From: Leucoraja ocellata
Taxonomy: Eukaryota
Length of the DNA: 64,000 nt
Direction: 5' to 3'
Assembly (NCBI GenBank): GCA_036785375.1
Contig: JAWMAR010000388.1
Span: forward strand, 248,001 to 312,000
The position numbers were made by a program, and so were the translations under genes. Shown here one piece after another: positions 196 to 63,959 of this stretch (its first letter is position 1; each line of letters starts with the position of its first letter). The notes beneath the pieces were generated by a model, which saw only the letters and a program-made list of their open reading frames with translations, did not search any database and had not been told where the DNA came from.

Positions 196-228
196 GTCTG
201 AAGAAGGGTTTCGGCCCGAAACGTTGCC
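196..228 (+). ncRNA. Minimal type I hammerhead ribozyme motif
   Basis: CTGAAGA(198-204)-A-GGGT-TTCG-GCCC-GAAAC(218-222)-GTT; palindromic ACGT stem III. Confidence 0.7.
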
Positions 229-327
229 CTTTTCCTTCGCTCCGTAAATGTTGCTGCACCCGCTGAGTTTCTCCAGCTTTTTTGTGTACCTTCGATTTTC
301 CAGCATCTGCAGTTCCTTCTTGAACAC
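196..327 (+). mobile_element. Solo Penelope-like terminal repeat (pLTR) carrying a hammerhead motif, in the J-Cmu intron
   Basis: Matches the 3' end of the PLE at 61301-61435; flanked by cagcgataca / cagtgataca. Confidence 0.85.
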
Positions 328-1309
328 AGTGATACAATGTTAATCATTCGTTCTTCCGTGCCGATCACATTGTAAACGTAAACTCGTTTTAAAGATGCTG
401 GAAACTGAACTGAATTGCATCATTAATTTTAATTGATTATTATTGATTTCATTGAGGCAATGATGCACACAGACAAACATTTGAAACATGTGCCAATTTA
501 TTTAATTACGAAGTATTAACATGTTCTTACAATTTATATGCTACATTTAGTTTCCAAATGTTGTGGTACATAACCTTTACTAATTCAGATATTATATTGA
601 GGGAGTTCTTTTTAATCCTTACCAATGCAATCTCATACATGTTTTTAATCTGGTATGAATGTAATGTTCTTGCCGGCTGGTTTGCTTTTTGGAATGTCCT
701 TGCAATTACGGTCGACATAGAAATGATCGGTATATTTTCGTGAGTGATGGGACAACAAAATACAGTTAAAAAGTAACATTTGAAGTGTGTTATTTGTCGC
801 TACCATTTCAATCCCATCCACCCCCTTAGTTGGTTTCGTTCGATGGACACATTTAAGGCCAAATTACACGAACAAGATTGTGATTGTTTATTTTTTGTCT
901 TCTCCCAAATTATGTTCGGGACCCGATGTGGAAAACCATAGCCATCCTTCCATTGTTTCTGATTTTATCGGATAATCTCTGAACCATTTATGACAAAAAC
1001 TCTTCCCTCTTCCTTCAAATCAAAAGTTTAGCCACGGGCACTCTCAGTGGCCCAAGCGAAACCTACCAAAATTATTTAATTTTAATTAAATAAATGCATA
1101 TGTAATTTTGAACGTCAGTCAAACCCTCGTTTGAACCATTGATTTCAATTCCCACTCTGTTCACGGATTAGTGGGATAACTGTTCGATTCAAATAGCAGA
1201 GAAAATGTTGTTTCCAACATTGCACATCATTTCACCAATTTCCATTTAGCTGGGTACACGGGACAACCCCTGACACAAACTGGCCGATTCCCCGAACTCT
1301 TCCTCCTGT

Positions 1310-1715
1310 ACCCATGCAGAACTCATCGACTTCATTGTCTACAAACTTTGACCGTACGATCAAATTCCCCGGGTCTATCCCCGACACATACCTCCCCTTT
1401 GTTGATCTCACCGTCTCCATCGCAGGAGATAGACTATCGACTGACGTAAATGACAAATCTACGGACTCCCACAGCTATCAGGACTGCACCTCTTCCAACC
1501 TTGCCTCCTGCAAAGATTCTATGGTCTATTCCCAAATTCATCCATCTCCGTGCAACTGCTCCCAAGATGAGTTGTTCCATTCCAGGATATCCGAGGTCCT
1601 CATTCTTTAGGGAGCGGGTATTCTCCACTTTTACAATAGACGAGACTCTCACACGTGTCTACACTGTATCCCGTAGATCCGCCCTTGCTCCATCATCCCC
1701 AGTCGCAACAAGGAG
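1310..1715 (+). mobile_element. Degenerate Penelope-like RT fragment in the J-C intron
   Basis: LPFVDLTVSIAGDRLSTDV...TDSHSY resembles LPFLDLTISIAGDRLLTDIHYKPTDSHGY in ORF 24079-24855. Confidence 0.85.
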
Positions 1716-2017
1716 TTTGGTGAGATTGTAACACATACGCCAACGTTAGTTATAGCCATTGAACATTCCTGAGAAATGCTGGGAATTTTACAGTAATTAA
1801 TACTGGAGGCCTATCGATATATTTCCAACTCGAAATTGTGCGTACATTTGGCAGTAACTGCCAGATATTGGCACCCAAGACGTTTTCAGCCAATGTTTTC
1901 CAAGGTGGGATCAAGGCGGAATGATTAACTAATAGTGTGTGATACACGGGTGAAGTTGCATGAAATAGACAAGAGAGAGAGAGAGAGGTTAACATTCATG
2001 TGGCCTTTGCTTTGCAG

Positions 2018-60500: not shown

Positions 60501-60760
60501 CAGGAACATACAACAGTTAAACATATCTCAGAGCAAAATGCTGACCCTGAAAAATTAGACGAGGCTTTGGTCTAGAAGTGGCCCGGGCGATCAATGTCTT
60601 TTCACAGAGAACTGGATGACATTTGGGAATGTCACATTCAGAAACAGAGTCAGAGGAATTCATTCACATCTTTCACATACACCACCAAGGTTAAAACCAC
60701 CACAAACAAAACATTGACTTTCTGGACTTTCCCTAAACTTGCCGGCCCTCTTTCCCTGAT
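57535..60760 (+). mobile_element. Second, divergent PLE family RT remnant split by nested CR1s (pieces ~57535-57745 and ~60230-60760)
   Basis: IIKAADKG..VVMDKQQYLFEAHRL ... FYIFPKIHKHPDRWTEPGEIRPGKPIVCDCGSES..VAEYIDS. Confidence 0.75.
57841..59945 (-). mobile_element. Two stacked CR1s (57841-58573 TTATATGG subfamily; 58580-59945 other subfamily)
   Basis: ORFs 57920-58573, 58730-59341 and 59647-59895. Confidence 0.92.
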
Positions 60761-60840
60761 GAAGCTGCAGACAAATCAAAACTGGAAGATTGTTGTTGCC
60801 CAGTCATGGACACCACTGGATTGAATTGGCATTAGAGAAT

Positions 60841-61150
60841 GGTGGGCACAGTGGTGTAGCTGGTTGAGCTGCTGCCCCACAGCGCCAGAGACTCGGTTTA
60901 ATCCTGACCTCCAATGCTGTGTGTGGAGTTTGCACGTTCACCCTGTGACCGCGTGTGATTTCTCCGGGTGCTCTGGTTTTCTCCCACATTCCAAACACCT
61001 GCAGGTATGCATGTTAATTGTCCTCTGTAAATTGCCCCTAGTGTGCAGGGAGTGGATGAGAAAGTGGGAACTAGTGTGAACGGGTGATAGATGGTCAACG
61101 TGGACTCGGTGGCTGAAAGGACTGTTTCTAATCTGTATCTCTGAACTAAA
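60841..61150 (+). mobile_element. Near full-length HE1-type SINE
   Basis: tRNA-like head, V-domain and ctgtatctctgaactaaa tail. Confidence 0.8.
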
Positions 61151-61300
61151 ATGGTGACCACAAACAAACAGACACCCACAACCTTTTGCGCACAACCAGC
61201 CACCGTCCAAAACATACATTCAGAGGGACAGTAAAGACACAACTGATTCACTTCCACCACGTTTACACCACAGGTCTTCAACCAGTCCACCACTGCACTT

Positions 61301-63959
61301 GTGTTCAAGAAGGAACTGCAGATGCTGGAAGATCGAAGGTACACAAAATTGCTGGAGAAACTCAGCGTGTGCAGCAGCATCTATGGAGCGAAGGAAATAG
61401 GCGACGTTTCGGGCCGAAACCCTTCTTCAGACTGATGGGGGGTGTGGGGGAAGAAGGAAGGAAAAAGGGAGGAGGAGGAACCCGAGGGCTGGGGGATTGG
61501 AGGAGACAGCTCGAGGGTTAAGGAAGGGGAGGAGACAGCAAGGGCTAGCAAAATTGGGAGAATTCAACGTTCATGCCATCAGGACGCAAGCAACCCAGGC
61601 GGAATATGATGTGCTGTTCCTCCAATTTCCGGTGTTGTTCACTCTGGCAATGGAGGAGACCCAGGACAGAGAGGTCGGATTGGGAATGGGAGGGGGAGTT
61701 GAAGTGCTGAGCCACCGGGAGTTCAGGTAGGTTATTGCGGACTGAGGCGAGGTGTTCGGCGAAACGATCGCCCAACCTTCGCTTAGTCTCCCCGATGTAA
61801 ATCAGCTGGCATCTAGAGCAGCGGATGCAGTAGATGAGGTTGGAGGAGATACAGGTGAACCTTTGTCGCACCTGGAACGACTGCTTGGGTCCTTGAATGG
61901 AGTCGAGGGGGGAGGTGAAGGGACAGCTGTTGCATTGCTTGCGGTTGCAACGGAAAGTGCCCGGGGAGGGGGTGGTATGGGAGGGAAGGGAAGAATTGAC
62001 AAGGGAGTTGCGGAGGGAGTGGTCTTTGCGGAAGGCAGACATAGGGGGAGATGGGAAGATGTGGCGAATGGTGGGGTCACGTTGGAGGTGGCAGAAATGG
62101 CGGAGGATTATGTGTTGTATTTGCCGGCTGGTGGGGTGAAAGGTGAGGACCAGGGGGACTCTGCCCTTGTTGCGAGTGCGGGGATGGGGAGAGAGAGCAG
62201 TGTTGCGGGGTATGGATGAGACCCTGTTGCGAGCCTCATCTATGGTGGTGGAGGGGAATCCCCGTTCCTGAACAATGAGGACATTTCCGATGCCCTGGTA
62301 TGGAATGTCTCATCCTGGGAACAGATGCGGCGTAGGCGGAGGAATTGGGAGTAGGGGATGGAGTCTTTACAGGGGGCAGGGTGGGAAGACGTGTAGTCCA
62401 GATAGCCATGTGAGTCAGTTGATTTGTAGTGTATGTTGGTCAGAAGTCTGTCCCCTACGATGGAGATGGTGAGGTCAAGGAATGGTAGGGGAGTGTCGGA
62501 AATGGTCCAGGTGTATTGGAGTGCCGGATGGAAGTTGGTGGTGAAGTGGATGAAGTCAGTTAGTTGTGTGTAGGTGCAGGAGGTGGCCCCAAAGCAGTCG
62601 TCAATGTAACGGAGATAGAGGTCGGGTATGGGGCCCTAGTACGTATTGAACAAGGATTGTTCAACGTACCCGACAAAAAGGCAGGCGTAGCTGGGGCCCA
62701 TGCGTGTACCCATAGCTACGCCTTGTGTTTGGAGGAAATGGGAGTAGTCAAACGTAAAGTTGTTGAGGGTGAGGACCAACTCCGCTAGGCGGAGGAGAGT
62801 GTCAGTGGCTGGGTATAGGTTGCTCCTCTGGTCGAGGAAGAACCAGAGGCCATCCTGGTGGGGGATGGAGGTGTAGAGTGACTGGACATCCATGGTGAAG
62901 ATGAGGGGGTGAGGACCTAGAGAGTGGAATGCGTGGAGGCAGCGGAGAGTGTCTGAGGTGTCTAGAACATAGGTGGGAAGGGATTTGACCAAGGGGGATA
63001 GTATGGAGTCAAGGTATGTGGAGATGAGTTCGGTGGGGCACGAACAGGCAGAGACAATGGGTCTGCCGGAGAGCCGGGTTTGTGGATTTTGGGGAGAAGG
63101 TAAAAACGTGCCGTGCGGGGCTGGGGAACGATGAGGTTGGAAGATTGGTCGGGCAGGGCGTGGGAATTGATGAAGTCGGTGATGGTGCTAGATATGGTGG
63201 CCTGATGCTCGTCAGTGTGGTCATGGTCCAAGGGTAAGTAGGAGGAGGTGTCCGAGAGTTGGCGCGTGGCCTCAGCTTTGTAGAGATCGACGCGCCAGAC
63301 TACCACGGCACCTCCCTTGTCGGCTGGTTTGATGACCCAATCTGGGTTTTTGCGGAGTGATTCAACGACAGTGCGTTCAGAGGGGGAGAGATTGGAGTGA
63401 GACAGGGGAGTGGAGAAGTTGAGGAGGTTGACGTCGCGGCGGCAGTTCTGGATAAAGAGTTCCAGAGCCGGGACGTTACGAGGGGGGTTCCACAAAGAGG
63501 GGGTGCATTGGAGACGGGAAAAAGGGTCATCATTGGGTGGCGAGGACTCCTTCCCATGGAAGTGCGCTGTGAGGCGGAGGCGAGGGTAGAAGCGCTCCAA
63601 GTCATGGTGGGCGCGGAACTCATTGAGATGGGGACGGAGGGGGACAAAGATAAGACGTCTGCTGAGGACAGACTGTTCGGTGTGGGAGAGGGGGATATGG
63701 TGAACACCCGGCAGGGATGGGAGTTGGGGCCAGAGGAAGGCAGGTGGGTGGACTGGGGACGGGGCGATGTGTCGGGGGGGGGGGGGGGGGGGGCTGTGGG
63801 TGTTGGGGGGGTGGTGGCTGGTCAGGGGGTGGGGGGGTGAGAGGGCTGTAATGTGGGTGGGGAAGAGTGGGAGTGACATGGTTGGAGGGGGATGGGGAGA
63901 GTCAGTGGAACAGCCACTGAGGTTAGCAAGGCGGGCACTAGGACCCAGTGGAGTGCAGA
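61301..63959 (-). mobile_element. Long Penelope-like element (N-terminal region, RT, GIY-YIG, pLTR), frameshifted, 13-bp TSD
   Basis: IKPADKGGAVVVW, FYLLPKIHK, TMDVQSLYTSIPH, QGVAMG and GIY-YIG motifs; caccactgcactt at 61288-61300 and 63960-63972. Confidence 0.95.
61400..61433 (-). ncRNA. Minimal hammerhead motif in the pLTR of the long PLE
   Basis: Reverse complement reads CTGAAGA-A-GGGT-TTCG-GCCC-GAAACGTC. Confidence 0.72.

Follow-up and report, generated by a model that had tools for sequence, protein, structure and literature searches.

Minimal type I hammerhead ribozymes are known from the terminal repeats (pLTRs) of Penelope-like elements. The class as such, the dimer model of its cleavage, the extra A in the core, the G10.1-C11.1 pair, the ACGU palindrome, the solo copies and the inverted pairs have all been published (PMC4209133). 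Counts of the minimal motif, as given in the available parts of the sources, are about 4,000 in coelacanth and about 9,000 in Xenopus tropicalis (PMC4209133), and a section heading speaks of up to 120,000 in axolotl (PMC7229834). For an element of the anole, the accessible text of the report describes a motif that cuts only with protein and is not needed for insertion, and a reverse transcriptase (RT) that starts on uncut RNA at two internal sites, which define the tail (PMC11167929). An optional tail and inverted truncated pLTRs have been described for Penelope-like elements (PMC8557442, PMC3846280), and initiator-like and downstream promoter elements in other pLTRs (PMC2377424, PMC3846280), as far as the available sections of these papers go. 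Here, a stretch of 64,000 nucleotides from Leucoraja ocellata (GCA_036785375.1, contig JAWMAR010000388.1, positions 248,001 to 312,000 of the forward strand), called the window below, was analysed for such motifs. They were found in two Penelope-like families, A and B, and are probably minimal type I hammerheads that cleave weakly, as dimers and with the help of protein, in intact master elements, the scattered copies likely being inert.

Motif copies in the window

A search profile (nhmmer) was built from 10 motif copies, which match it by construction. It returned 27 rows in the window: 16 that spanned the motif, 9 pieces of terminal repeat without the 5′ part of the motif, and 2 weak rows (E 4.7 and 6.2) that were excluded. 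The best row in the reversed window, used as control, had an E value of 4.8. The window was also scanned with a strict descriptor, which required the core, a stem II of 4 bp, paired 15.2/16.2 and H17; it matched five times, with C3 at 198, 13075, 41902, 44766 and 61430, against a mean of 0.03 and a maximum of 1 match in 100 dinucleotide shuffles. At these five places the core CUGANGA, GAAA, U16.1 and H17 is complete together with stem II. An Rfam scan with E up to 1 gave five rows, all under their gathering scores and none from a hammerhead family, and exact-pattern scans of metagenome and viral contigs gave 0 and 0 matches.

A preliminary description of the window had placed the motif at 15 positions, and the profile search and the descriptor found it at all of them. 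The five headline copies have C3 at 198 (+), 13075 (+), 18973 (−), 44766 (−) and 61430 (−); four of them carry the full stem II attributed to them, whereas at 18973 the fourth pair is broken by an A opposite G. The decayed copies have C3 at 4117 (+), 23571 (−), 32732 (+), 34588 (−), 41902 (+), 45960 (−), 50031 (−), 50133 (+), 55282 (+) and 55749 (+). A sixteenth motif-spanning copy, more divergent and absent from the earlier list, is located at 34286 (−). The extra A after A9 and the ACGU in place of helix III, both noticed earlier, are present and fit the published consensus. The extra A lies between positions 9 and 10.1 and occurs with G10.1-C11.1 in both families, in agreement with the consensus in the accessible part of PMC4209133, and the palindrome (15.2-16.2) belongs to both family majority sequences and to 10 of the 16 copies. 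The C/T alternation at position 17 is likely not a family trait: the family A majority across five copies is C, the site is a CpG, and the T of two of the five copies is likely due to deamination. Helix I, which the description left unmentioned, has only two pairs in families A and B.

Two Penelope-like families carry the motif

The two families, A and B, correspond to the pLTRs of different Penelope-like elements coding for RT and a GIY-YIG endonuclease, since B follows a different end of the open reading frame (ORF) and an unrelated spacer. The location of the motif in Penelope-like pLTRs, as first described, is borne out by the descriptor and by the linked RT/GIY-YIG ORF ends. The family A motif lies 114 nt past the stop of an ORF with RT, a CxxxxCxxC linker and GIY-YIG, and the family B motif 193-225 nt past the other ORF end. 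The two ORF ends share 74% nucleotide identity over 163 nt (26% difference); the upstream spacers could not be aligned, and the downstream 66 nt are 80% conserved between the families. Divergence from the majority sequence is 3-22% in the B copies and 2-6% in the four untruncated A copies.

One family A copy comprises, on the reverse strand, the frameshifted pieces of a Penelope-like ORF at 61545..64000 (N-terminal part, RT, CxxxxCxxC linker and GIY-YIG), which continues beyond the window edge, and a 3′ pLTR at 61300..61544. The latter is made up of a pyrimidine-rich stretch to CAG, the hammerhead, the 66-nt downstream part and a tail of about 40 bp. Its intact minimal hammerhead (61401..61432, −; C3 61430) has a predicted cut between 61403 and 61402. 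The linker CNRKQCNSC in the 61545-62309 frame precedes the endonuclease and fits the CX2-5CxxC definition in the available text of PMC8557442. The endonuclease of the A ORF matches GIY-YIG PF01541 (E 1e-4). A Pfam scan of the ORF fragments themselves gave no RT match; YIDD is present in the family A RT piece, and the homologues carry PF00078. The best named homologues of the Penelope-like ORFs are those of stingray and bamboo shark, with 56-60% identity.

A second family A copy (23531..24872, −), 95% identical, is 5′-truncated, runs from RT to GIY-YIG and is cut off by a satellite; its motif (23542-23573, −) has U16.1 changed. At a head-to-head joint (12473..13205) an ORF piece (12473-12906, −) meets an inverted pLTR (12904-13205, +) with an intact motif at 13073-13104 (+), and a further family A pLTR with tail is found at 18845..19034 (−, motif 18944-18975). 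Family B is represented by a pLTR at 44672..45018 (−), which extends from the final codons of the ORF as far as the short 3′ end and contains an intact motif at 44737-44768 (−; C3 44766, C17 44739), and by a GIY-YIG end at 54883..55401 (+) with a 193-nt spacer, a decayed motif at 55282 and a tail. No full-length Penelope-like copy was present in the window, and 11 of the 16 motif-bearing copies have no attached coding sequence, so most copies are indeed detached from the coding element, as had been proposed.

The stingray protein P0001, named as an isoform of a host kinase-like gene, is almost wholly a Penelope-like RT-endonuclease, and its short foreign C-terminus starts where family B has its stop and a donor-like site. 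Older Penelope-like RT and endonuclease fragments at 1295-1713 (+) and 34680-34772 (−) show about 55% amino acid identity to family A. In both families a second pyrimidine tract with AG and then ATG is located about 45-75 nt past the predicted cut (61336-61380, −); from this ATG the A frame remains open across the tail, whereas the B frame meets a stop. By analogy with the anole element, the ATG downstream of the cut may be the start of the ORF.

Solo units, inverted pairs and their ends

A family A solo unit with an intact motif (GUU) and a tail at 191..328 (+) begins 2-7 nt before C3 and has an 11-bp target duplication with one mismatch. Three family B solos have decayed cores: those at 32729..32862 (+, with tail) and 45866..45963 (−, short form) begin 3 nt before C3, the second with a 10-bp target duplication with one mismatch, and the one at 34484..34590 (−) begins exactly 2 nt before C3 and has a perfect 11-bp duplication. 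Decayed family B copies with a broken core are located at 4103..4214 (+, C3 4117), between two immunoglobulin (Ig) constant exons, and at 55744..55841 (+, C3 position 55749). A third, more divergent pLTR type (34201..34290, −; C3 34286) has a broken core and a possible 4-bp helix I, which suggests that A and B may have lost a base pair or two.

Four head-to-head pairs of pLTRs were found, each with the tail on one arm only. At 41848..42032 a short motif-less arm (−) is joined to a tailed arm (+) that starts 3 nt before C3 41902. Both arms of the B-type pair at 49901..50227 bear the motif, 50031 (−) tailed and 50133 (+) short, and stem II is broken in both. The pairs at 32322..32449 and 33860..34021 consist of motif-less pLTR pieces, the latter with a 12-bp target duplication with one mismatch. 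Further motif-less pieces are located at 19465-19546 and 19854-19906 (both −), at 47365..47439 (−, with tail) and, weakly, at 32598..32646 (+, E 0.023). Most motif-less pieces start roughly 2-25 nt past the cut site.

The 3′ ends of the pLTRs cluster near +94 or near +130 from C3, about 40 bp apart, which is the length of the optional tail. The 5′ edge lies at −2 or −3 from C3 in four of the 16 copies (32732, 41902 and 45960 at −3, 34588 at −2), and in a fifth, 198, somewhere from −2 to −7. It coincides with the start of helix I, with CAG after the pyrimidine tract and with TCAGTC, which we take to fit the initiator consensus; the chance rate of an initiator-like pattern is 1.45 per kb. In all four sequencing runs compared (see below), the top rows listed included loose ends at positions 44768 and 44769 that had mixed flanks, some of them decayed copies with other spacers, and no sharp 5′ boundary at the cut site was among the top loose ends listed. 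Target duplications of 9-12 bp were detected in 6 of the 10 insertions examined (p up to 0.018, with 1000 random pairs of positions as the control).

Folding, conservation and decay

Self-cleavage of the A and B motifs is a prediction from the motif. The majority motifs differ at three positions, namely the first loop base, 11.4 and 1.1, the last forming U-G or U-A with 2.1 according to family. Two of these differences are A/G changes opposite U, the commonest kind of substitution, and for this reason they say little. The stem II variant had been described as structure-preserving. Pairing does stay possible, but the variant is weak evidence of selection, the changes being one-sided and a competing hairpin being available. 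The family A loop base creates six pairs that bury GAAAC at −5.0 kcal/mol, compared with −5.1 for stem II, and because this hairpin is equally stable the variant does not simply preserve the fold. In family B the same hairpin reaches −1.3 against −4.8 kcal/mol for stem II. In 40-mers, stem II had a probability of 0.13 in A and of 0.75 in B; longer contexts gave values from 0 to 0.15. Covariation across the copies, which the preliminary description had offered as a check, was not seen: the score of 0.135 fell under the shuffled mean of 0.161 and was reached by 426 of 500 shuffles. A splice completing helix I, judged by eye from donor-like sites, was also considered and rejected, as the joined ends would not lengthen helix I; no such joint was among the joints listed.

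A core better conserved than the flanking pLTR, on which the motif had been made to depend, was found with borderline significance. The majority sequences of A and B agree at all 18 core and near-core positions and differ at 13 of 66 downstream (one-sided p 0.03); with the 11 invariant positions only, p is 0.11, and with the whole motif 0.16. Within family B, changes at non-CpG positions affected 12 of 100 core positions (12%) and 81 of 622 downstream positions (13%, p 0.87), the A23571 row having been left out of the decay analysis as an artefact of copy truncation. Family B copies decay neutrally; with the core changing as much as the flank, no individual copy is being maintained. Transposition likely left the scattered copies behind as inert by-products.

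Population size and RNA reads

The stretch 44560-45160 was compared at 80% likeness with four of 24 listed sequencing runs. Two runs whose kind is unrecorded, from organisms C and D, gave 306,324 and 256,977 matching contigs, which upholds the very large motif population proposed at the outset, in that about 250,000-300,000 contigs per run contain the repeat, contig numbers not being copy numbers; summed contig depth was not used as copy number either. Organisms C and D contain 0.63 and 0.47 of the words from a stretch of the window and are perhaps other species than the window's. The density in the window, 16 per 62.9 kb (5 strict), would amount to about 250,000 copies (80,000 strict) per Gb if the window is typical. 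Together, these figures suggest genome-wide copies of the order of 10^5-10^6.

In two poly(A)/oligo-dT runs, 21,169 of 7,335,232 and 57,641 of 12,895,792 RNA reads mapped to the query, in nearly equal numbers for the two directions. Passive transcription would account for this pattern, which is evidence neither for nor against cleavage. Head-to-tail joints of units of about 95-100 nt were present in at least 106 (X15) and at least 196 (X18) contigs, and inverted joints in at least 59 and at least 74 contigs among the joints listed. An RNA joint from 44746 to 44688 was carried by 190 and 981 reads and defines a 66-nt tandem unit starting at G12. This unit (44688-44746) retains only the GAAAC-GUC half and could act as the substrate strand for a complete motif. 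The joint was not adopted as RNA-specific, the counting of contigs being incomplete.

Other features of the window

The window also holds Ig constant exons (PF07654), three further Ig-like exons and LINE-type RT pieces besides the Penelope-like ORFs. Such content, with the stingray and bamboo shark homologues of these ORFs, likely reflects an origin from a cartilaginous fish. Four Ig constant-type exons (+) are located at about 1999-2169, 3680-3943, 4461-4745 and 5759-6241, the last of which ends like a secretory tail, and together (1999-6241, +) they probably form a heavy-chain gene of IgM type. Two motif copies, 198 (intact) and 4117 (broken), lie in the sense orientation of this gene. A degenerate 10-bp satellite of 2.9 kb and telomere-like composition (20618-23531), to which an array at 19237-19420 is related, abuts and truncates a family A copy 15 nt past its predicted cut site. 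An AT-rich inverted repeat of about 190 bp at 11297-11490, which forms a long hairpin, is likely a MITE-like (miniature inverted-repeat transposable) element, and its Rfam microRNA match is far under the gathering score. Finally, 36800-41820 contains segmental repeats of about 1.3 kb with 26-bp arrays; among these, 39090-40356 shares 98% identity with 40390-41657, a recent duplication or an assembly artefact.

Discussion

The cycle of the two families may be pictured in the following way. In a tandem RNA of an intact master, the motifs of two pLTRs would pair through ACGU and be cut after GUC, and the element's protein would assist this cleavage, because helix I has 2 bp and other folds compete. 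RT would start internally, about 94 or about 135 nt past C3 and mostly on uncut RNA. A start in the downstream pLTR would give ORF-bearing, 5′-truncated copies, and copying from the upstream pLTR would reach the 5′ end of the transcript, immediately ahead of the motif, and run off there to yield solos of 100-135 bp. This RNA 5′ end is likely the transcription start, and the solos are likely run-off products of internally initiated reverse transcription. A bolder version, which we advance as doubtful, is that cartilaginous-fish genomes hold 10^5-10^6 strong-stop-like units with one end at the tail and the other at a transcription start that precedes C3 by three bases, the hammerhead being the 5′ end of the RNA; a hammerhead forming the very 5′ end of the RNA would then have a helix I of 2 bp.

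Several observations weigh against dimer cleavage followed by run-off copying. Compensatory changes were seen in none of eight pairs, every change being one-sided. Helix I, with 2 bp of which one is U-G or U-A, is at or below the published minimum; by our count, 6 of the 56 motifs listed in the accessible text of PMC4209133 have a 2-bp helix I, all with two G-C pairs. Cofolding gave minima of −24.2 and −21.1 kcal/mol, against which the double-hammerhead folds reach −7.3 and −6.1, and in the consensus fold computed from 13 copies the core is sequestered by pairing with the downstream pyrimidine run. No pile-up of read ends at the cut site or the proposed start was seen in the two poly(A) runs, where passive copies dilute the signal and strandedness is unrecorded. 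The upstream pLTR was not seen, because the 5′ end of the full element lies beyond the window, the letters at the 5′ edge fit a 3′ splice site equally well, and 4 of the 10 insertions examined have no clear target duplication.

The hammerhead likeness could have arisen by chance and been amplified through repeat copying: all copies stem from few masters, so their number is not independent evidence, and no Rfam hammerhead model matched. We find this scarcely credible, as the parts of the motif (all 11 invariant bases of the core, stem II, extra A, palindrome) stand in order at the very place where Penelope-like elements are known to carry hammerheads. More weight is due to a vestigial hammerhead in A and B that no longer cleaves and whose letters are kept as promoter, splice acceptor or RT-binding signal. 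The 2-bp helix I and the competing folds of both families agree with this, as do the longer helix I possible in the third pLTR type, the RNA ends not piled up at the cut site, and the 66 downstream nt, likewise 80% conserved next to spacers that cannot be aligned. In addition, 8 of 9 Xenopus dimers assayed failed to cleave according to the available text of Li 2026 (10.64898/2026.07.22.740005). We nevertheless consider loss of cleavage unlikely, since the core and near-core lack any difference while the ORF ends differ by 26% (the borderline comparison above), all three motif differences leave pairing possible, and weak minimal motifs elsewhere cut as dimers or with protein, as stated in the accessible parts of PMC4209133 and PMC11167929.

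The short units themselves might propagate as a non-autonomous, retrozyme-like family through head-to-tail dimers, cleavage and circular RNA. Their fixed ends, target duplications and huge numbers would be explained, the head-to-tail joints of the contigs would be expected, and tandem retrozymes are reported for one chondrichthyan in the available text of Li 2026 (10.64898/2026.07.22.740005). This origin seems quite improbable to us, because none of the 16 copies in the window is tandem, no array there has a complete motif in consecutive units, the joints occur in less than 0.1% of matching contigs (counting incomplete), and the solos of both families correspond to pLTRs found with coding elements. 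Moreover, units that begin before C3 and not at the cut site point to uncut templates. A closer contender, though still on the doubtful side, is that the 5′ edge derives from a 3′ splice site (pyrimidine tract and CAG), or from RT stalling with template switch, and not from a transcription start. The tract and CAG stand one base before the core in both families, the stop codon of B is overlapped by a donor-like GTAA site, inverted joints are also located at the 5′ edge, and the pLTR intron of D. virilis ends at helix I in the accessible description (PMC4209133). Yet the G or AG, which splicing would eliminate, is still present in the solos, the loose ends share no upstream exon (agreement 0.31-0.34), none of the 15 joints listed is splice-like, and the GT donor at the stop is absent from two of three A copies checked.

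As it stands, the analysis extends a known motif to another fish lineage. Added here are the 5′ edge that solos often have 2-3 nt before the core, the 9-12-bp target duplications, the optional tail of about 40 bp and the scale of copying. A literature search did not find the A and B families or their numbers described in cartilaginous fish; the supplements of Li 2026 (10.64898/2026.07.22.740005), whose survey includes one chondrichthyan according to its available text, may list such families. If the solos are run-off products, the many fixed-end fossils would open the Penelope cycle, still poorly understood, to tests in vivo: they would map the start site and both RT initiation sites and show whether cut or uncut RNA is copied. 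If they are strong-stop-like units, they would rank among the largest families of ribozyme motifs in any vertebrate. The weak helix I offers a natural test for the minimum size of a working hammerhead.

Comparison with known systems

The closest relatives, as far as the accessible texts allow, are the minimal hammerheads that Penelope-like elements carry in metazoans (Cervera and de la Pena 2014, PMC4209133). The motifs share with them the CUGANGA/GAAA/UH core, the extra nucleotide after A9, G10.1-C11.1, the palindromic ACGU for helix III, the location in pLTRs, the prevalence of solos and the opposite-strand pairs 100-700 bp apart. They differ in a stem II of 4 bp and in a 2-bp helix I with U-G or U-A, where the listed motifs have at least 3 bp or two G-C pairs. 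None of the 56 motifs listed is from a cartilaginous fish, and the window density implies far more copies than the counts for coelacanth and Xenopus tropicalis. The coding element resembles the Neptune-type, endonuclease-bearing Penelope-like elements (Craig 2021, PMC8557442) in having RT, a CX2-5CxxC linker and, C-terminally, GIY-YIG in one ORF, and in the 3′ hammerhead in the pLTR, the optional 30-40-bp tail and the inverted truncated pLTRs; this likeness is one of architecture, and Nematis has the linker too, by the available text. With the anole Poseidon element PAc (Frangieh 2024, PMC11167929) the families share a minimal pLTR motif, two 3′ ends that define the tail and the absence of RNA-seq ends at the cut site, as far as the accessible text tells; PAc belongs to another clade, and protein-assisted cleavage and internal RT start were demonstrated there and are only inferred here. 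Like the non-LTR retrozymes (Cervera 2020, PMC7229834; Li 2026, 10.64898/2026.07.22.740005, in their available parts), the solos are non-coding hammerhead repeats related to pLTRs, and rare head-to-tail units occur in the run contigs; unlike them, the copies in the window are solo or head-to-head and not tandem, and their motif is minimal.

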